Assembly: GCA_963664535.1 (NCBI GenBank) | Contig: OY761465.1 | Coordinates: 841,350 to 905,349, forward strand | Source: Candidatus Binatia bacterium | GTDB taxonomy: Bacteria; Desulfobacterota; Binatia; UBA9968; JAJDTQ01 | Length of the DNA stretch: 64,000 bases | Direction: 5' to 3' | In this document: one piece after another, positions 9,618 to 28,187 of the stretch | Layout: each line of letters begins with the position of its first letter | Position numbering within the stretch: the stretch's first letter is position 1 | Program-made: the position numbers and the translations under genes | Notes under the pieces: model-generated | What the model was told of the DNA's origin: nothing | Database searches by the model: none | What the model saw: the letters and a program-made list of their open reading frames with translations, nothing else

Positions 9618-9986
9618 TTAACCGGACAGGACACTAGCTTTGTCGGGACCACACAGAAACCATCCGTCATGCCGCCCCAGCGCGTGCGCCCAGAGCGCCT
9701 CCTCACCCCCGTCCAACGCGATGCCCTGTATCTGAACCAACAGTTTGGCGCGTTCGCCGTCGCCAACAGGATGCACGGCCGACAGCGAAACCCGTAGCTC
9801 GCTGGCGACAATGGACTGCTCCGTCCGACGCCGCTGAAAGCCCGTCTGCGTCTCCATCACGCAAAGTTCAACGGTTTCCACCCGATAGCCACCGACCAGC
9901 GCCTGCCACGAGCCCGTCCGATGCGACTCGATGATCGCGTTCGTGTCCACGAGCAGCGCCGTCTCGTGGTCGACCCTTCTGCTCAC
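9618..9986 (-). CDS. DUF4411-type PIN-like protein (putative toxin/nuclease partner of the ImmA-HTH protein)
   Basis: GTG start overlaps the upstream TGA (GTGA); N-terminal LLVDTNAIIESHRTGSWQAL fits the DUF4411/PIN-like pattern. Confidence 0.55.
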   Translation of the reverse strand: MSRRVDHETALLVDTNAIIESHRTGSWQALVGGYRVETVELCVMETQTGFQRRRTEQSIVASELRVSLSAVHPVGDGERAKLLVQIQGIALDGGEEALWAHALGRHDGWFLCGPDKASVLSG

Positions 9987-11086
9987 AGACCAATCGCCTG
10001 ATCGACGCCATGGGCGGCAAACAGTTCCTCCAAATCCTCGATCGCGAGCCCGACCAGAGCCGCCGCACGCCGAACCGAAACATGACCCTGGTCAATGGCC
10101 TTCGCCATCACCTCCACGAACGGCCGCGAGAACAAAGGCGGAGGCTCCGAGGAGTCCTCGCGGCCATTGTTCCGCAAGGCGGCGTCCGGAATTGCTCGCG
10201 CCTGTCTCTTGGTCAGCTCCCGGAGGGCGACCAAACGCCACCTGAGGGCCGACGAGGTCACACCCAATTCATCTGCCGTCGCGTTCAGTCGAGCGATCAA
10301 GTCACCCATGTCCAAGCGCCCCCAATCTCCAAAGGAGTCAAGCGCCGCCTTCGGCATCAGCACGGCGGCCGCGAAGTTGTTGGCCAGTTGTTCCACCCGA
10401 TTGCCGCCGAAATCGCTGGCTTCTTCCGTGTGCTCGGGCGGCATCGCTTCCCAGGTGAGGATGTGAAACAGCTCATGCGCAAGGTCGAAGTTGCGGCGCC
10501 CTGCCACTTCCCCTCGTGCGACCAGCACCGCGTCGAACTCAGGCAGGTGGCACGCCGCTCCGGAAATACCTCGGCAAGCGTCCACCATAAGCACGAGTAT
10601 CCCGAACTTGTCTTGCATCGCCGCCGCAAGACGTTGCGCCGGCACAACCCCGAGCTTGAACTCGGCAACAAACCGCTCGCCAGCATCCACCGCTTCCTCG
10701 AACCTCGACAGCTTGGTTAGCCCAAGGGCCTGTCGCATCAACGGCGCCCGTCGACCGACCTGCGCAGCCAGAACGCGGTACGCACCAATCCAGCGGCCAG
10801 CCGTCCGCTCATACTCGCCGAGTTCCGACCGTGTGACTCCCCTCTGTCGCCAGGAAAACAGCGCCTCCCCGTCCAACCGAAAGGGATCGGTGAAATAGTC
10901 GAGCGGCACACGCAGTTTCTCCACGGCGAGTAAGAGTTCTGCCGCAGTCACACGGCGTACGCCGGTCTCTATTGCCGACACGGTTTGCCGATCCTTGAAC
11001 CCGAACAAGCGCGCCATTTCATCCTGAGACAGAGCGCGCTCCTGTCTCAACGCCTTGAGCCGCGTACCGATGATCTGACGTGCCAC
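9983..11086 (-). CDS. fusion of an XRE-family HTH domain and an ImmA/IrrE (COG2856) Zn-metallopeptidase
   Basis: N-terminal HTH LKALRQERALSQDEMARLFGFKDRQTVSAIETG; HEXXH motif HELFHIL about 150 aa downstream. Confidence 0.8.
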   Translation of the reverse strand: MARQIIGTRLKALRQERALSQDEMARLFGFKDRQTVSAIETGVRRVTAAELLLAVEKLRVPLDYFTDPFRLDGEALFSWRQRGVTRSELGEYERTAGRWIGAYRVLAAQVGRRAPLMRQALGLTKLSRFEEAVDAGERFVAEFKLGVVPAQRLAAAMQDKFGILVLMVDACRGISGAACHLPEFDAVLVARGEVAGRRNFDLAHELFHILTWEAMPPEHTEEASDFGGNRVEQLANNFAAAVLMPKAALDSFGDWGRLDMGDLIARLNATADELGVTSSALRWRLVALRELTKRQARAIPDAALRNNGREDSSEPPPLFSRPFVEVMAKAIDQGHVSVRRAAALVGLAIEDLEELFAAHGVDQAIGL

Positions 11087-11204
11087 CGGGCCTCCTTTCT
11101 TCTAAGCTTGCCTTTTGGTAATTGCAAGAAATATACGCGAACGACGATTCGCGCGCAAGCCTTGGCCCAAGTTTAATTGGGTAACTGCCTCGGTTCAGGA
11201 TGAA

Positions 11205-11229
11205 AGGGGAGCGCCGAAGCGACTCCCCT
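11205..11229. terminator. GC-rich hairpin (AGGGGAG-N11-CTCCCCT) downstream of hemD; candidate terminator of the hemX-A-C-D transcript
   Basis: perfect 7-bp stem seen in the sequence; no clear U-tract. Confidence 0.25.
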
Positions 11230-11359
11230 TCGACGACGGCAGTACTGCACTCTACTTGGGCAAACTCTCCGGCGTGACCCGTCCGACACAGCCGCGACTA
11301 TCGGAACGCATGTTTAAGTAGCCGTGCGGTCCACTGGCAGGCGGGTTCGAAACCCGCCC

Positions 11360-12178
11360 CTACACATTCCTTCCGTGTTCATCCACGCCGGCCGTGCATT
11401 CTACCAGAGCCTGGATCAGGCCCGCCACGGTGTATTCCCGGGCCTCGACGTCCACCGTCAGGCCACGCTCGCGGGCGGCATTCGCGGTGATGGGGCCGAT
11501 GCAGGCCACCCGGGCCGCCGCCGGGACTCCCTCCCCGGCCTGTTCGAGCAGATCCATGAAAGCGCTCACCGTGCTTGGACTGGTGAACGTGACCCACTCC
11601 ACCTGCCCGAGGAGCCGCGCCAGCCGCCGGCCGCCATGCCGCACCGGTTCGTTCCGGTAGGCTTCCACCACCGTCACCGTCGCGCCCCACCGCCGCAGCG
11701 TCTCGGGAAGCACGTCCCGGGCTCCGGCTACCCGGGCGAGCAGGAAGCGGCGGCCCCGGACGCGCTCCGGGCCGAGGGCGGCGAGGATCCCTTCCGCGCG
11801 GAATTCTTCGGGCACCAGGGTCACCGAAAGGCCGTTGTCTTCCAGCAGGCGGGCGGTCTGCGGACCGATGGCCGCCACCCGAAGCCCCTCCAGCCTGTCG
11901 ACACATCCCAGCGCCTCGCAACGTTCCAGGAAGTGCCGGACGCCGTTGGCGCTGGTGAACACCAGCCAATCCTGTTCCGGGAGCCCGCGGACGGCCTCGT
12001 CCAGGGCGCCGGCGTCCCGAAGCGGCAGGATCTCCACCGTGGGAAAGACCACCGCCCGGGCGCCGAGGGCTTCGACGCCGCGGACGAAGGCGCCGGCCTG
12101 CTCGCGCGGACGGGTGATCAGGATCCGCTGTTCGGAGAGCGGAACGCCGCCGGAGTGCGCCACCGCCGTATCGCTCAT
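11360..12178 (-). CDS. hemD: uroporphyrinogen-III synthase
   Basis: ATG at 12178 preceded by GGGAGG and overlapping the hemC stop; ILITRPREQAGAF and duplicated HemD half-domains. Confidence 0.8.
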   Translation of the reverse strand: MSDTAVAHSGGVPLSEQRILITRPREQAGAFVRGVEALGARAVVFPTVEILPLRDAGALDEAVRGLPEQDWLVFTSANGVRHFLERCEALGCVDRLEGLRVAAIGPQTARLLEDNGLSVTLVPEEFRAEGILAALGPERVRGRRFLLARVAGARDVLPETLRRWGATVTVVEAYRNEPVRHGGRRLARLLGQVEWVTFTSPSTVSAFMDLLEQAGEGVPAAARVACIGPITANAARERGLTVDVEAREYTVAGLIQALVECTAGVDEHGRNV

Positions 12179-18830: not shown

Positions 18831-18960
18831 GGTGTCTCCTCCCTTTAGCTGTGACCGGTGGCCCAATCAGTCGAAAGTATCCGAGGAACAGATGTCGTGT
18901 CAACCTACACAGCGCGCTGATTTGGCTGGAAGTAGCCCTATTTGTGAGCTGGCGAGACGG

Positions 18961-19191
18961 TCAAGCCACCGCAACGAGCCGAATTACGTCTTCAAATTCG
19001 CGCACCGAACCGCCGCTTCGCCGTTCGTAACGGTCGACCTTAAAGTTCTGTGCAAGTATATCCGCGATTGCAAGCGCACAGTTGTCGTCGTCCACAAGCG
19101 GAAGCGCTTTGATTTCTCCAAGAGAAATCTCACCGCGATTAAGCAGCAGAGCAGCTGCAAGGCGTGCGGGGACCGCCGAATAGTTGAGCAT
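18961..19191 (-). CDS. small hypothetical protein (76 aa); second gene of the low-GC protease cassette
   Basis: ATG at 19191 preceded by GAGGAGG and separated by 1 nt from the upstream stop; ~50% GC against ~68% in flanks; no family recognised. Confidence 0.45.
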   Translation of the reverse strand: MLNYSAVPARLAAALLLNRGEISLGEIKALPLVDDDNCALAIADILAQNFKVDRYERRSGGSVREFEDVIRLVAVA

Positions 19192-19192
19192 T

Positions 19193-20140
19193 TCACGCCT
19201 CCTCACTATGCCGAGCATCTCTATTTTCGGGGTCGTTTCCGACTACCCCCGGCGGCATCGTTTTCAATAGCTCAGGGGGCAATCCTTTCAATTGCTCCCT
19301 CATCTTCGCTTGCTCCTGCTTTCGAATCAAGTCGTCTCTCTCCCTATTGAGTCCATGAATTTTCCACACTATATCTAAGGCTTCTTCCTCGATTTCATGT
19401 GCCTCCAACCCCAACTCTTGGACCTCACCGATTGTGATGCACCAACTATGATCAGCATACCCGGTCGTCAATAGTTCTCCAATACTCTTTGCACGCTCCC
19501 CTTCTCCTTTCAGCATCCTCGAAGACAGGAGCTTTTCAACGTACTCTCTCCCTACATCGAGCGACTTCTTGAAACTCCCGAGAGTCAGTGGAAACTGCAA
19601 CCTTTGCATGAGGCCCTCGGCCAGCTGAGAATTCCCGTTGGCAAACTCTTCCCGAATAAGTTGCAGGGTTGACTCTATGTGGAGAGGAGAGAACCGTTCT
19701 ACTCGCTGTTCTAAGGGGTTCATCTCTGTGATCTGTGGGTCCAACGGCCCTAGTTCTGCCACAGGTGTCATTAGGATCTCGTCACCAGCACAAATCAAGA
19801 GCGTCGCTGCACTTTTCGCCCATCGTGGGATGATGAAAGTGAGCTTCTCATTTCCGTAACGGCGAAACAGGAGAGCAAGGTTATACGCCGCATCAATATC
19901 TCCTCCACCAGAATCGATGACCACATCCAAAGACTTCCCACTATACTTTCCTGCCCTTAAGTCATCATAAACCCTATCAACCAGGGTATTCCGTATATTG
20001 GCCTCTCCGAGTAACAACGGAAAACACTCTGCGCCACGAATCGCGGCAAGCTCTTTGCAAACGCCATCGATTTCCTTGTCAATGGAAGAAATTGTTCTTC
20101 TTGATCTTGCGCGCGCCATCCTATCCTTCTTCCTAACCAC
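19193..20140 (-). CDS. ClpP/crotonase-fold serine protease of the S49/SDH (serine dehydrogenase proteinase) family
   Basis: IDSGGGDIDAAYNLALLF and WAKSAATLLICAGDEILMTP align to the ClpP/SppA core (nucleophilic Ser in AKSAAT); helical C-terminal extension; low GC. Confidence 0.6.
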   Translation of the reverse strand: MVRKKDRMARARSRRTISSIDKEIDGVCKELAAIRGAECFPLLLGEANIRNTLVDRVYDDLRAGKYSGKSLDVVIDSGGGDIDAAYNLALLFRRYGNEKLTFIIPRWAKSAATLLICAGDEILMTPVAELGPLDPQITEMNPLEQRVERFSPLHIESTLQLIREEFANGNSQLAEGLMQRLQFPLTLGSFKKSLDVGREYVEKLLSSRMLKGEGERAKSIGELLTTGYADHSWCITIGEVQELGLEAHEIEEEALDIVWKIHGLNRERDDLIRKQEQAKMREQLKGLPPELLKTMPPGVVGNDPENRDARHSEEA

Positions 20141-20239
20141 GAAGTTGTTCTCGAAAAAGACGATTACGCGGTTTCTTTCTCGAAATCAACTCTCCCATGT
20201 CCGTGGCGGGCGTCCGCTGTATGTGTGACCGCGACTCCT

Positions 20240-25004: not shown

Positions 25005-25112
25005 GCTGCATCCTCCCGGCCCCGGTGTCGTTCGTGGGTTTCGGAGCGAGATTGAAAATTTTTAACAGATAGTGTGGCGGGGTGCGAATCGGGGCACGAC
25101 AGGTCTCGATTG

Positions 25113-25271
25113 ATGAAGGACGGCAAGCCGGTGACGATCACCAAGCGGGGGCGGCCCGTGGCGGTGCTGTCTCCCCTGCAGGCTCCACGTATTTCTGGTG
25201 TGGTACAGCACCGTCACAATCCCTGCTCCGATGGCGTCCGGTCTCGGGTTTTCGCCGCGGAAACTGTCTGA
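25113..25271 (+). pseudogene. remnant of a Phd/YefM-family antitoxin (C-terminal fragment only)
   Basis: KPVTITKRGRPVAVLSP matches the conserved Phd/YefM core; the N-terminal half is absent. Confidence 0.3.
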
Positions 25272-25277
25272 ACGTGT

Positions 25278-27155
25278 TCATCGCGGTGGTTCACGTGTGA
25301 ACGGACGATAATCCACCAACGCGGACTGACCGATAATGTCAATAATGGTCACAGACAGCTCCGAGCCCGCGGCGTCCGTGAGCTTGATGGACTTGCCCAG
25401 CCGAAAATGCACTGGCTGCTGTCGACCGTCCTCTATGGCGATATTGTCCGCATACAGATAAGTCCGATCGAAGGCATCGCGTATGGGATTGAGGCGTCCG
25501 CGCAGGCCGGGGAGATGTCCGATGGCCTGAGGGAATATGGCGGCACCTCCGGCAGAAAGGCGATTGAGCTCGATCAAAAGACCTCCGCGGCTGGGCAACC
25601 ACTCTCTTTTCAGCCCTCCACCATACCCAGGTGCCGCAGCATAAACGGTCATCGGAAGATGCGTTGTGTATAGATCGAGAGATGCTTCGCCAGCCTCGTC
25701 GGTCGTTGCGCGTTGCCAGGTCTTGTTCGGAAAGAGCGCCAATACATCGACTCCCGACAGAGCTTCTCCTTTGGAATGCACCGTTACTGTCGAGGCGGCG
25801 GGACTCAATTCGAGTTTCGCAGCAGGAATGCTCAGTGCGACGTTGGACTGGTCAACGACCTTGTATTGTGGCAGGTTGCCAGTGGCTGCTTGGGTTTCCG
25901 TCTTGATTATGGATACGCCGTCCCCTCGGCGTTCCATCAAGTATCGACGATGGCTCGACCCTGGGACATCTCCGACGGGAATTCGTCCAAACACGGAGGC
26001 GATCACTTCGTTGCGCGTTGCCTGGCTTGTGTCCATGCCTTCAATGGTCATCCCATTGGGAAGCTGACCGGGCGAGTCAATCTCAAGACGCCCCATGAAC
26101 ATTGACAATCGGATACGGCGGGAAGACATGGAGTAATCACGGTGCGCAACGGCGTTTACCACCGCTTCGAACACGGCTGCAACGCTGTATTGTGCCACAT
26201 CCTCCCGCTCCGGTAACTTGCGCGCCGCGACCCGCATGTTGCGTACGACGAACTTCACCGCGTCAGCGATCTGCAAAGGTAGTGGACCGACAATTTCCTG
26301 TGCGTCCAGTTGACCGGAGGCGCGATCCTTTCCGCGATAGTGCGTGGCTAAAATCGTGGCTTGTGGCAACCACCTATGTGGCGACTGGCTACAAAGCAGC
26401 ACCCCTGCAACTGTCGCGCGATCCACACCCGCTTCATCCTCGCCCAGGAGCCTGAGATTCATCAATGCCCTGCGAGGATCATCCGCTCCAGCCACGCTGA
26501 GCAGCGGCTCCCACAGCCGCTCGCTGAGCGTCTCGAAGCCCGTATTGGGCACGATTTGTTTATCGAACCACAGATAACGGCTTTGTGCGCGGTTCTGCGT
26601 CAGCCTTAGACGCTCTTCGCTGTCCATTTGTCGCTTGGTCGCCCCAACGCGGATGAACGCGCGCCCATCCCGTTCGTGAACGGTGTTGCCCCGCGGCACT
26701 TCGACGAGAACAAACGCTTCTCCGTCAAGTTCCCGGTGATGAACGTCGATTCGCAGCGCAGGCTTCACCGCATCTGTGCTTACTTCAACCAGCAGGCGAT
26801 CAACTGAGGCCATCTGTTCCGGTGACATGCCCTGAATGCGCCCATCGTCCGAAACGCCGCAAAGAAGTGTGCCTCCGCTTGCATTCGCGAAGGCCGCCAT
26901 TTCATCCGCTAGATCATCCCGTCGGGGACTAGTGAGCTGATTCCCATTGAACTCCATCTGCTTGAATTCCCAGGCGCTGTCCTCGCTCAGACGCAGCCGC
27001 TGCCGTATTTCGGCGTCGCTTACGGCCATCATTCGCTCCCGAGATTCCTTGGTGGCCCGTACCGAGTAGGGCTCACCGACATCGTAAACGACCTTTCTTG
27101 CGCAATTGTCATCGGTGTCCGTGTCCAATGACGCCGAACTCGCTGTCCGTCTCAT
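25278..27155 (-). CDS. Schlafen/AlbA_2 domain plus HATPase_c_4 ATPase protein (RecG-C-terminal-like putative DNA-binding/defence-associated protein) with a ~230-aa uncharacterised C-terminal extension
   Basis: N-terminal SEDSAWEFKQMEF... (AlbA_2 core); central VAAVFEAVVNAVAHRDY...GRLEIDSPGQLP (HATPase_c_4); ~56% GC. Confidence 0.65.
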   Translation of the reverse strand: MRRTASSASLDTDTDDNCARKVVYDVGEPYSVRATKESRERMMAVSDAEIRQRLRLSEDSAWEFKQMEFNGNQLTSPRRDDLADEMAAFANASGGTLLCGVSDDGRIQGMSPEQMASVDRLLVEVSTDAVKPALRIDVHHRELDGEAFVLVEVPRGNTVHERDGRAFIRVGATKRQMDSEERLRLTQNRAQSRYLWFDKQIVPNTGFETLSERLWEPLLSVAGADDPRRALMNLRLLGEDEAGVDRATVAGVLLCSQSPHRWLPQATILATHYRGKDRASGQLDAQEIVGPLPLQIADAVKFVVRNMRVAARKLPEREDVAQYSVAAVFEAVVNAVAHRDYSMSSRRIRLSMFMGRLEIDSPGQLPNGMTIEGMDTSQATRNEVIASVFGRIPVGDVPGSSHRRYLMERRGDGVSIIKTETQAATGNLPQYKVVDQSNVALSIPAAKLELSPAASTVTVHSKGEALSGVDVLALFPNKTWQRATTDEAGEASLDLYTTHLPMTVYAAAPGYGGGLKREWLPSRGGLLIELNRLSAGGAAIFPQAIGHLPGLRGRLNPIRDAFDRTYLYADNIAIEDGRQQPVHFRLGKSIKLTDAAGSELSVTIIDIIGQSALVDYRPFTREPPR

Positions 27156-27161
27156 CGGTTC

Positions 27162-27438
27162 TCAGGCAGTTCTCGGGGATGCGACCTCCGCATAGGCTCG
27201 GGCCGCGGCGCTGTCGAACGGCAGAATCCGACGCGCAAATCCAAGGTCGAGCCAACATCTCAAGCGTTTCAGGATAAGTCGGGAGACTCGCGCATCGGGC
27301 CGCGCGGAGGAAGTTCGAGTTCGACGCCGCCGAGGGGCGCGAAGCATTCGCGGGTGAACTTCGCCAAATCCCGGGGACCCGCCCGCCCGCCGTTCACCTC
27401 GTCGTCGAGATTGCGAATCGTGATACTCGCCATGGTCA
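27162..27438 (-). pseudogene. decayed vapB/fitA-vapC-like toxin-antitoxin remnant
   Basis: MTMASITIRNLDDEV is a StbC/FitA-type RHH antitoxin N-terminus that then loses frame; a downstream 61-aa ORF carries a VapC-like ILPFDSAAARAYAEV segment and abuts the Schlafen gene. Confidence 0.35.
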
Positions 27439-27553
27439 TCCTCCCGCGGTTGTCAATTTACGCGGGGATTGCGATGCAATCAAGATGCTGTGCATGTGCC
27501 CGGCTTTCCTGATGGTGTAAGGGCCTTGATTCGACACCCATGCGTTTCTTGCA

Positions 27554-27575
27554 TACCAGACAAAAGTCTGGTATA
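27554..27575. promoter_or_regulatory. perfect palindrome ATACCAGAC-AAAA-GTCTGGTAT, 10 nt upstream of the lexA start; candidate LexA operator
   Basis: 9-bp inverted arms seen directly in the sequence, over the lexA promoter region. Confidence 0.55.
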
Positions 27576-27584
27576 CGCATCCTC

Positions 27585-28187
27585 ATGACACCCTTTACTC
27601 CACCGGGAGAGACCCGGGACAAGGTTTACCGGTTCGTGCGCAGGCGGATCCTGGAGGAGCTTCCTCCCACGGTGCGGGAGGTCCAGGAGGCGTTCCGGTT
27701 CAGGGCGGTGCAGACGGCCCGGCAGCATCTGGAGCGCCTGGTGGACGAGGGGCGGCTGGTCAAGGCGCACGGGAAATCCAGGGGCTATCGCCTGCCCCGG
27801 GAGCCCGGGACGCTGTTCGTGCCGCTGCTGGGGCGGGTGCAGGCCGGCGGGCTGCGGGCGGCCATCGAGGAATGCGAGGGCTACATCCCGGTCCAGTCAC
27901 GGGACTCGGAGGAAGTGTTCGGGCTCCGGGTCCAGGGGGAAAGCATGACCGGCGCGGGTATCCTTCCGGGCGACATCGTCGTCGTGAGGCAGCAGGCGGA
28001 AGCCTCCTCGGGGGACATCGTCGTGGCCCTGGTGGGCGACGAGGCCACCATCAAGAGGCTTCGCCTGCGCCGGAGCCGGATCGAGCTGCATCCGGAGAAC
28101 CCGGCTTTCGCGCCAATCGTCCCCAGGGCCGATGAGTGCACCGTCCTGGGCAAGGTGGTGGAGGTGAGACGTTATCTGGAAGGGTAA
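27585..28187 (+). CDS. lexA: LexA repressor
   Basis: N-terminal winged-helix region; S24 peptidase motifs GESM (Ser) and KRL (Lys); cleavage-site region VQAGG. Confidence 0.85.
   Translation: MTPFTPPGETRDKVYRFVRRRILEELPPTVREVQEAFRFRAVQTARQHLERLVDEGRLVKAHGKSRGYRLPREPGTLFVPLLGRVQAGGLRAAIEECEGYIPVQSRDSEEVFGLRVQGESMTGAGILPGDIVVVRQQAEASSGDIVVALVGDEATIKRLRLRRSRIELHPENPAFAPIVPRADECTVLGKVVEVRRYLEG

Follow-up and report, generated by a model that had tools for sequence, protein, structure and literature searches.

A Schlafen-GHKL gene with a C-terminal beta module, the sole survivor of a decayed defence islet next to lexA in Candidatus Binatia

The 64-kb stretch of a Candidatus Binatia genome analysed in this work (contig OY761465.1, positions 841,350 to 905,349; hereafter "the window") carries, between the genes lexA-imuA-imuB-dnaE2 and an ABC transporter operon, a gene whose product combines a Schlafen nuclease domain, a GHKL-type ATPase domain and a C-terminal beta module. 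We propose that this protein is probably a single-protein abortive-infection effector, i.e. a phage defence protein of the prokaryotic Schlafen class, which would act as a trigger-activated, ATP-dependent tRNase. Its gene alone has remained intact from a defence islet that was acquired in one piece and later decayed. The class itself is known already, both as prokaryotic Schlafen effectors and as the "Schlatpase" supradomain. What switches a Schlafen on is known from the papers of 2025-2026 for two sensor types only, the Ig-like domain and the Argonaute core, and the locus described here points to a third, widespread sensor module, which is not fully covered by Pfam or PADLOC.

The listing of open reading frames (ORFs) shows a 625-aa frame on the minus strand, at 25278-27155, and a first-pass annotation, made from the letters of the window, took this frame for the protein. 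The frame is real; the protein itself is 583 aa long and starts at 27029 (MAVSD), because the best 120 homologues almost always have 576-600 aa, because the database entry that is 100% identical to the window protein has 583 aa, and because a ribosome-binding site (RBS), GGGAG, lies 6 nt before the ATG at 27029. The extra 42 N-terminal residues are upstream DNA read through. A search of 5.8 billion proteins returned more than 3,400 relatives, and the 120 best are 71-100% identical to the window protein, nearly all of them at 74% or above. The few homologues with a named source are labelled Gemmatimonadota, Acidobacteriia, Gammaproteobacteria, Nitrospira, Truepera and Paracoccaceae, hence a near-identical Schlafen gene has spread across phyla, with a patchy distribution and at 75-90% identity. 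A common sponge-microbiome habitat was considered as the cause of this high cross-phylum identity; the support for it is circumstantial and we do not claim it. Among plasmids, phages and IMG/VR contigs no full-length copies were found, only distant Schlatpases (25-39% identity) that lack the C-terminal module. The gene is foreign DNA on which purifying selection acts: its GC content, put at ~56% in the first-pass annotation, is 0.58 compared to 0.66 for the window, the GC content at third codon positions (GC3) is 0.615 compared to 0.84-0.91 in the adjacent genes, and the dN/dS ratio against its closest intact counterpart, the copy in locus L001 (see below), is 0.14.

Both enzymatic domains named in the first-pass annotation were recovered by the Pfam search, well above the cut-offs. 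In the numbering of the 625-aa frame, PF04326 (SLFN_AlbA_2) is matched by residues 58-178 with 72.5 bits (gathering cut-off 25.3, E-value 5e-20) over the full profile, 1-118, and PF13749 (HATPase_c_4) by residues 347-433 with 58.6 bits (cut-off 26, E-value 6e-16); elsewhere, unless indicated, residues are numbered in the 583-aa protein. The catalytic motif of the Schlafen domain is E16-DSAW-E21-F-K23, accompanied by a third acidic residue, D61. In an alignment of 64 family members, E16, E21, F47, N49, G52, G53 and N292 are invariant, while K23, D61 and E288 are near-invariant. The stretch AAFANASGGTLLCGV at residues 45-59 comprises the Schlafen box and the core of glycine and hydrophobic residues behind it; the box has as its first residue A, not the S of SAFAN. 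In a phmmer comparison with 5yd0, the residues E16, E21 and D61 fall on the catalytic residues of SLFN13, which we take to be E205, E210 and D248 of the rat protein. The motif fits the pattern Ex4(E/D)xK that defines Schlafen nucleases (PMC13056530; bioRxiv 10.64898/2026.05.29.728809). The N-box of the GHKL domain, FEAVVNAVAHRDY, presents E288-x3-N292, the counterpart of E314/N318 of RzAgo, the SLFN-Argonaute protein of Runella zeae, in which these two residues coordinate Mg-ATP (bioRxiv 10.64898/2026.05.29.728809).

The predicted structures agree with these assignments. AlphaFold2 (AF2) models the Schlafen domain with a pLDDT of 85-90 (residues 20-150), and Foldseek retrieves SLFN11, SLFN12, SLFN13 (5yd0) and SLFN14, mostly with probabilities of 0.9-1.0 and with E-values of ~6e-4 to 2e-2. 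The best match is 3LMM (DIP2311 of Corynebacterium diphtheriae), which covers approximately the N-terminal 430 residues with an E-value of 4e-10 and displays the same order of domains, at an identity of only ~20%. DIP2311 and other AlbA_2-HATPase_c_4 proteins of the COG2865 type end in a winged-helix/helix-turn-helix (HTH) domain, whereas the window protein ends in a beta module.

Judged by its sequence, the protein, with SLFN placed first and GHKL following in one polypeptide, is an example of the published Schlatpase supradomain; the term occurs in a single paper, a preprint (bioRxiv 10.64898/2026.05.29.728809). According to that preprint, SLFN is combined with PF13749 in 58.6% of 103,533 prokaryotic SLFN proteins, more than 90% of the Schlatpase tails are HTH domains, with "Ig-like" among the rarer tails, and Schlatpases reside in defence islands and spread horizontally. 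In RzAgo, ATP bound to the GHKL domain leads to a tetramer with two-lobed active sites, and tRNA is cut once the Argonaute sensor has found its target (bioRxiv 10.64898/2026.05.29.728809). Independently, prokaryotic Schlafens (pSlfns) have been reported to protect against phages, and the Ig-like domain of RorSlfn5 to sense the tail assembly chaperone of phage T5 (Nat Microbiol 2026, PMC13056530). Bacterial Schlafen-like ATPases had been called poorly understood in the first-pass annotation, a description overtaken by these publications of 2025-2026, in which prokaryotic Schlafens are tRNA-cleaving defence effectors and the SLFN-GHKL supradomain is described.

The window protein resembles RzAgo in that both Pfam domains occur in the same order and the Ex4(D/E)xK motif, the AFAN box and the E-x3-N of the GHKL domain are conserved; it differs in having no Argonaute core, with a beta module of 170 aa at the position of the sensor, so that no guide or target nucleic acid is implied. 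With pSlfn5 (RorSlfn5), compared here by its description, it shares the N-terminal nuclease (acidic residues E15/D20 in pSlfn5, E16/E21 here), a C-terminal beta-sandwich and the single-gene organization. In pSlfn5, on the other hand, the nuclease is fused directly to the Ig-like domain and no GHKL domain is mentioned, while the module of the window protein comprises two subdomains, is as conserved as the nuclease (74-79% vs 76% identity) and is common to effectors other than Schlafens. The protein has no NCBIfam model, and PADLOC yields only partial matches, to the model of prokaryotic Argonautes (pAgo) and to SIR2-PNTD models; the former covers residues 79-438 in the numbering of the 625-aa frame, since SLFN-pAgos carry a Schlatpase head, too.

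The region beyond the GHKL domain, earlier put at ~230 aa and left unassigned, comprises ~170-185 aa according to our analysis (residues ~400-577). The AF2 model of residues 400-583 alone is all-beta (pLDDT 89.9, pTM 0.84) and divides into two subdomains, which we call C1 and C2. For C1, Foldseek gives target-normalised TM-scores of 0.74 to 5AQ0 and 0.57 to 6YTC; the family PF13620 scores 22.8 bits, below the threshold, in the window protein, and is matched at E<=0.001 by 27 of the 83 module-bearing proteins analysed below. C2 carries the motif PGLxGRLNPIxDxxxRTYLYAxNIAI..G..QPV, whose residues are near-invariant across heterogeneous fusions. No PDB entry matches C2 at E<=0.001 and no Pfam family even at E<=10; candidate matches in BFVD, to decoration domains of phage baseplates and fibres, were set aside as generic similarity between sandwiches.

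The module alone, used as a query against 1.84 billion representative proteins, finds 553 clusters at 50% identity, 394 of them with E-values below 1e-10. It is almost always C-terminal, in host proteins of ~100-760 aa. Its partners were determined by a Pfam survey of 83 module-bearing proteins, ten of which were inspected individually. The N-terminal partners include HATPase_c_4 with SLFN, TIR_2/TIR (16 proteins), SEFIR, DUF4062, caspase and protein kinase domains, as well as a trypsin-like protease, PIN_8, PIN_12, Fic-like_C and AAA_14 with DUF4143, so that the module is carried by at least ten kinds of effector head (about a dozen). The heads match the PADLOC models of bSEFIR, ThsB/PDC-S66, SpbK and PD-T4-6 (E-values of 1e-15 to 1e-80), while the module itself matches no PADLOC defence model. 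In these fusions the module replaces the usual C-terminal part of bSEFIR, of the ThsB-type TIR proteins, of SpbK or of PD-T4-6, whose heads thus occur with the same module as the window protein, in which the head is a Schlatpase. The module of one TIR fusion is up to 73% identical to that of some Schlatpase fusions, which points to recent exchange. No Pfam or PADLOC model spans the whole module, and in the literature we found no description of the module, of C2, of its sharing among effector heads or of the frequent embedding in type I restriction-modification (R-M) operons reported below.

We therefore regard the C-terminal region as probably a sensor. The main argument is that the module is joined to many unrelated immune effector heads, which speaks for sensing or for some other shared regulatory role; in addition, it stands in for the C-terminal half in single-gene systems such as bSEFIR, and in position it corresponds to the HTH, Argonaute or Ig-like sensor of other Schlafens. 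Of the two roles initially entertained for this domain, effector and sensor, the swapping of the heads thus favours the latter. The mean identity of the homologues to the window protein is 76% in the Schlafen domain, 84% in the middle region, 84% in the GHKL domain, 79% in C1 and 74% in C2, and the dN/dS of the module is 0.107; in other words, the variability of the module does not exceed that of the nuclease domain. For pSlfn5, divergence is reported to be concentrated in the sensor (PMC13056530). Because the module is as conserved as the nuclease, whereas the divergence of pSlfn5 sits in the sensor, our data suggest a conserved ligand.

By homology with RzAgo and RorSlfn5, the following mode of action can be envisaged. 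ATP bound to the GHKL domain would promote oligomerization and thereby form two-lobed Schlafen active sites; the enzyme would stay latent until the C-terminal module binds its trigger, and the triggered enzyme would then cleave tRNA and stop translation in the infected cell. Something conserved, for example a phage component of that kind or the state of an R-M enzyme, is a more likely ligand than a fast-evolving phage protein, because the module is not exceptionally variable and because module genes often lie within type I R-M operons.

Several observations weigh against this assignment or against parts of it. Only two of seven pSlfn systems tested were protective, neither of them a fusion with HisKinase (GHKL) (PMC13056530). 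The AF2 model has a pLDDT below 50 at residues ~151-226 and 319-410, i.e. in the middle and GHKL regions, with a shallow input alignment; the ATP lid and the G-boxes are beyond the reach of this poor model, and DSPG (318-321) and RRGDG (367-371) are conserved at the level of sequence only. The module could serve oligomerization or localization instead of sensing. Two relatives of the gene (L082 and L086) stand alone among housekeeping genes, a setting that neither supports nor refutes a role in defence. Finally, the gene in the window stands without its former neighbours and without the upstream sequence that it originally had, and a sigma-70 scan found no promoter-like site, a result that says little for this phylum.

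The genomic company of the family invites a more specific version of the trigger step, not fully separate from the proposal made above, in which the C-terminal module of a latent tRNase would bind to a type I R-M complex, or keep watch on it, and the tRNase would be freed when a phage anti-restriction factor disables that complex, the copy in the window being an orphan. We consider this possible and rather less than even in its chances. The gene is found between hsdS and hsdR in L085 (hsdM-hsdS-[gene]-hsdR, with integrases upstream) and in L087 (hsdM ... hsdS ... [gene]-AAA_21-DUF4276-hsdR), among fragments of hsdM in L088, where a SIR2 gene is near, and downstream of hsdR-M-S and a second R-M pair in L001. 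A SEFIR-module fusion lies directly upstream of hsdM-hsdS-[second SEFIR]-AAA_21-hsdR (L095), and TIR-module fusions lie beside a C-terminal remnant of hsdR (L089-L092). A rough tblastn census counted Hsd genes near 5 of 16 module loci; the counts were 3 of 37 for generic Schlatpase loci and 1 of 77 for control loci (p = 4.5e-4 and 0.045 by Fisher test). This is a lead only, as the sample is small and non-random, long contigs were chosen, and the Hsd queries were drawn from module loci. Its size was limited by the scan of JGI metagenomes, in which most hits were generic Schlatpases and no more than five loci carried the module. The limited variability of the module is what would be expected for a conserved host ligand. 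As a precedent there is prrC, which is embedded in the EcoprrI operon and whose product is sequestered by the restriction enzyme (PMC3458546; PMC3874168), and in Poribacteria a Schlatpase is fused or adjacent to a type I S subunit (bioRxiv 10.64898/2026.05.29.728809).

The resemblance to PrrC of the type IC system EcoprrI is functional at most. It consists in the location of relatives, and of TIR- and SEFIR-module proteins, inside type I R-M operons and in the predicted nature of the protein, an abortive-infection effector that cleaves tRNA and carries an ATPase domain. The domains of PrrC are an ABC-type ATPase and a nuclease of its own, whereas in the window protein Pfam recognizes only SLFN_AlbA_2 and HATPase_c_4; there is no kinship of sequence or fold between the two, the R-M genes of the window have been deleted, and regulation by R-M is a hypothesis here. 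Besides, defence islands commonly contain type I R-M operons, in which genes of many kinds are known to be embedded, so that the linkage may be generic; other members of the family are solitary or have different neighbours, such as an SMC_N/AAA_21 ATPase gene adjoining the one in L083, DUF6978 and DUF1828/1829 genes adjoining the one in L084, and transposases and other defence genes around the TIR_2-module fusions of L093 and L094. Moreover, the copy in the window is intact and conserved, yet tblastn with the proteins of L001 finds no hsd gene in the 64 kb.

A still broader and more speculative idea, which we put forward with considerable doubt, is that the module is a portable sensor that plugs interchangeable suicide effectors (the Schlafen-GHKL tRNase, TIR, SEFIR, caspase, PIN, Ser/Thr kinase and trypsin-like protease heads) into type I R-M systems. 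If this were true, the principle of PrrC, a latent effector that fires once restriction has been disabled, would be generalised to a large family of abortive-infection proteins guarding R-M systems, with at least 553 clusters at 50% identity, and the window gene would be an orphan from which the R-M partner has been deleted. The module thus offers a direct test of whether the coupling of second-line abortive infection to restriction enzymes is far more general than the single example of PrrC would suggest.

Two further features of these loci may be recorded. Genes of AAA_21/AAA_15-type ATPases recur right beside module genes in or by type I R-M operons, namely in L087 (9847-11627, with DUF4276), L083 (8351-9940) and L095 (6927-8022), and they could be partners or additional defence genes embedded in R-M operons. 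In L084 (10001-12580), the 859-aa relative P0001 contains an internal tandem duplication, in which residues ~14-406 are followed by a second copy from ~residue 128, so that part of the Schlafen domain and the entire GHKL region are present twice; this is either real or an assembly artefact.

The history of the islet can be read from locus L001, which encodes a protein (P0003) that is 93% identical to that of the window. There, the order of genes is fitA-vapC-hsdR-hsdM-hsdS-HATPase_c_3 (851 aa)-type II-like methyltransferase (MTase)-68-aa ORF-Schlafen, and the window is collinear with this islet in four blastn blocks: 27492-27393 corresponds to 163-261 of L001 (88% identity), 27403-27254 to 332-481 (89%), 27254-27178 to 672-748 (88%) and 27157-25288 to 9872-11742 (92%). 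The blocks are separated by three deletions. The first, of 81 bp, is in-frame, lies in fitA between GGTGAA repeats and removes 27 residues that form the helices of the ribbon-helix-helix (RHH) domain; the second, of 190 bp, shifts the frame of vapC and removes the N-terminal catalytic region; the third, of ~9.1 kb, with ~20 bp of filler, eliminates both R-M systems. The filler (27158-27177) matches none of the fetched loci. A tblastn search with the proteins of L001 finds three relics in the window and nothing else, and on the fitA remnant PF22513 covers residues 4-15 only. In the closest relative (L002, OZ244070.1), the same 5' end of fitA lies at the same lexA junction and is followed by an IS3 element, without a Schlafen gene; therefore L002 and the window genome inherited the islet from their common ancestor, and it decayed differently in each. 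According to these alignments the islet arrived whole, and the Schlafen gene alone has remained intact. The three deletions are of the microhomology type; they took two R-M systems and a toxin-antitoxin (TA) pair and spared one gene, which makes the locus a clean, base-resolved case of the decay of a defence islet, in other respects an example of ordinary genome decay. Between the window and L001, dS is 0.465 in the C-terminal module, ~3 times that in the Schlafen part (0.13) and the GHKL part (0.15) (25299-27029 vs 10001-11734 of L001), which suggests that the gene is a mosaic in which the module has been exchanged by recombination.

Such a history raises the question of whether the Schlafen gene is a functionless survivor, intact merely because the decay is recent, and neither expressed nor used. 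We hold this to be unlikely, even though all other genes of the islet have been deleted or broken, the native upstream genes are lost, the promoter scan was negative and the dN/dS against L001 mainly reflects the history before the deletions. The catalytic residues are all intact in an ORF of 1.75 kb, and each of the three deletions stops short of it; in particular, 129 bp are left between the end of the 9.1-kb deletion and the start codon, so that the leader and the RBS are kept. The deletions have brought the gene immediately behind the promoter region of fitA, the repressor of which is without its DNA-binding helices, and read-through expression from there is possible.

The islet occupies a site that varies among relatives. 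The order dnaE2-imuB-imuA-lexA / gap / ABC ATPase-permease is kept in 11 related genomes, in which the ABC ATPase served as the anchor (96% identity in the closest relative, L002); the flanks shared with them stop at ~25110 and restart at 27547. The gap, measured from the start of lexA to the start of the ABC gene, is 2536 bp in the window, 134 bp in L004, 188 bp in L013, 432 bp in L019, 617 bp in L003, 789 bp in L011, 892 bp in L007, 933 bp in L008, 1025 bp in L005, 1421 bp in L002, 2090 bp in L009 and 2322 bp in L006. Its cargo includes Phd and PIN genes in L008 and L009, HigB with an HTH gene in L009, an Unstab_antitox and ParE pair in L011 with similar ORFs in L005 and L007, DUF433 in L006 and the IS3 element of L002. 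None of the 11 syntenic Binatia relatives has a Schlafen gene at this site, and in L004 the identical flanks are only 27 bp apart. The gap between lexA and the ABC operon is thus a hotspot rich in TA genes, and the islet has been acquired horizontally. The earlier suspicion of an integration hotspot and of a foreign origin, adjacent to the SOS mutagenesis cassette, is borne out by the variable gap, the atypical GC3 and the empty site that the alignment with relatives reveals; lexA-imuA-imuB-dnaE2 does adjoin the segment.

No machinery of mobility could be recognised. There is no integrase or transposase in the segment, the repeats in it are short and at chance level, with no att-type signal, and neither a tRNA nor any Rfam family was found in the window. 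The homology of DNA among the loci of the family halts at the ends of the ORF, without common flanks that would delimit a cassette.

At the other end of the segment lies a fragment of a Phd/YefM-type antitoxin gene. Its DNA is 88-90% identical to a central part of the Phd genes in L008 (9740-9671) and L009 (9735-9665), where in both cases a 137-aa PIN toxin is encoded next, and it scores 27.2 bits with TIGR01552 (cut-off 20.8); by this homology, the fragment is what remains of a resident Phd-PIN pair. The scar between this relic and the end of the Schlafen gene includes a 13-nt inverted copy (25205-25217) of a sequence of the relic (25158-25170). The peptides that had been likened to Phd, FitA and VapC in the first-pass annotation are therefore genuine remnants, with DNA homology to intact genes elsewhere, and all three are pseudogene relics, none of which keeps an intact DNA-binding domain of an antitoxin or catalytic domain of a toxin. 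The frameshift ascribed to fitA has to be moved to vapC, as the deletion in fitA, a real remnant, is in-frame.

These data bear on the model of the first-pass annotation, according to which the Schlafen gene inserted alone into a hotspot and displaced or disrupted resident TA loci on both sides. The site is truly a hotspot rich in TA genes, the Phd relic does derive from a resident pair, and, with family homology limited to the ORF, the behaviour of a single-gene cassette would be possible; the notion of disrupted older TA genes may be retained for Phd only, whatever the mechanism. Its FitA/VapC side is largely refuted. There, fitA, vapC and the Schlafen gene have the same order and orientation as in the islet of L001, at 88-92% identity, and the junctions are internal deletions; L002 has the same 5' end of fitA at the same junction and no Schlafen gene; and the FitA/VapC pair occurs at this site in no other relative. 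Since the genes are collinear with one intact islet and internal deletions explain the difference, FitA/VapC is the head of the incoming islet and was not disrupted by the Schlafen gene. As a whole, we judge the model improbable.

That the protein has a non-immune, housekeeping or regulatory function, like the Schlatpase-HTH proteins (COG2865) known as "transcriptional regulators" or "RecG-like helicases", is the least credible of the alternatives: it would suit the ~30% of surveyed pSlfn genes that are not near known defence genes (PMC13056530), the two family loci among housekeeping genes and the database label "putative DNA binding domain-containing protein", but the tail is a beta module common to TIR, caspase and PIN effectors and not an HTH, the catalytic residues of both the nuclease and the ATPase are invariant or near-invariant, and the foreign composition, the patchy spread across phyla and the absence from all 11 syntenic relatives are not the pattern of a housekeeping gene.

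Table 1. Features of the variable segment and its border with lexA (positions in the window)
Feature	Position	Strand	Basis
Strain-specific variable segment, 2,436 bp: decayed defence islet and resident TA relic	25111-27546		comparison of flanks with 11 relatives
Resident Phd/YefM-type antitoxin relic, ~24 internal codons, no start, no toxin gene	25112-25186	+	homology to L008/L009
Spacer/scar between Phd relic and end of Schlafen gene, ~90-100 bp	25187-25277		matches none of the fetched loci
Schlafen-GHKL ("Schlatpase") gene with C-terminal beta module, intact, 583 aa; stop codon 25278-25280	25278-27029	-	Pfam, homologues, dN/dS, RBS
Subdomain C2, small all-beta, residues ~484-577	25299-25580	-	AF2 (pLDDT 91-97)
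Subdomain C1, transthyretin-like/CarboxypepD_reg beta-sandwich, residues ~411-480	25590-25799	-	AF2 (pLDDT >90), Foldseek
GHKL/Bergerat-type ATPase domain (PF13749), residues ~305-391	25857-26117	-	Pfam; N-box E288-x3-N292 shortly before the matched stretch
Schlafen (AlbA_2) nuclease domain, residues ~1-150; E16-x4-E21-x-K23, AAFAN 45-49, D61	26580-27029	-	Pfam, alignment, AF2, Foldseek
5' leader of the Schlafen gene; contains the final 15 codons of the upstream 68-aa ORF	27030-27157	-	92% identity to L001 9872-10000; tblastn hit 27156-27112
Filler of ~20 bp at the junction of the 9.1-kb deletion (hsdR, hsdM, hsdS, HATPase_c_3, type II-like MTase lost)	27158-27177		junction alignment
vapC (PIN toxin) pseudogene: start codon followed directly by an internal fragment; the catalytic Asp region at the N-terminus and the C-terminus are missing	27178-27258	-	88% identity to L001 672-748, 477-481
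fitA-like antitoxin pseudogene, 56-aa ORF, 81-bp in-frame deletion	27269-27439	-	comparison with the 81-aa FitA of L001
Left islet end with the sequence upstream of fitA	27440-27546	-	blastn; common with L001 to 27492, with L002 to 27546
Candidate LexA operator, perfect 9-bp inverted repeat ATACCAGAC-AAAA-GTCTGGTAT	27553-27574		before the probable lexA start at 27585

The region of the inverted repeat ATACCAGAC-AAAA-GTCTGGTAT is conserved in all syntenic relatives. As the junction of the islet (27546/27547) is only 7 bp away, the sequence upstream of this candidate operator depends on the strain.

Some minor observations concern the hotspot and its surroundings. L003 contains a decayed Phd gene of its own (9671-9814), a 47-aa ORF in which the N-terminal part is fused straight to the C-terminal PSDWSATK motif; resident TA genes at the hotspot therefore decay repeatedly through internal deletion. 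In L012, lexA-imuA-imuB-dnaE2 is missing from the 10 kb before the ABC operon, and a larger insertion or rearrangement breaks the synteny. A second strain-specific islet of low GC content lies on the other side of the ABC operon, at 18867-20239 of the window, between a DUF4340 gene and a conserved gene for a 223-aa protein. It encodes a 315-aa ClpP-like serine protease of the SDH type (PF01972; GC 0.50, GC3 0.53) and an 85-aa ORF. All 13 Binatia relatives compared lack the PF01972 protease at this position, and in them the DUF4340 gene and the gene for the 223-aa protein are mostly 55-100 bp apart (up to ~270 bp).

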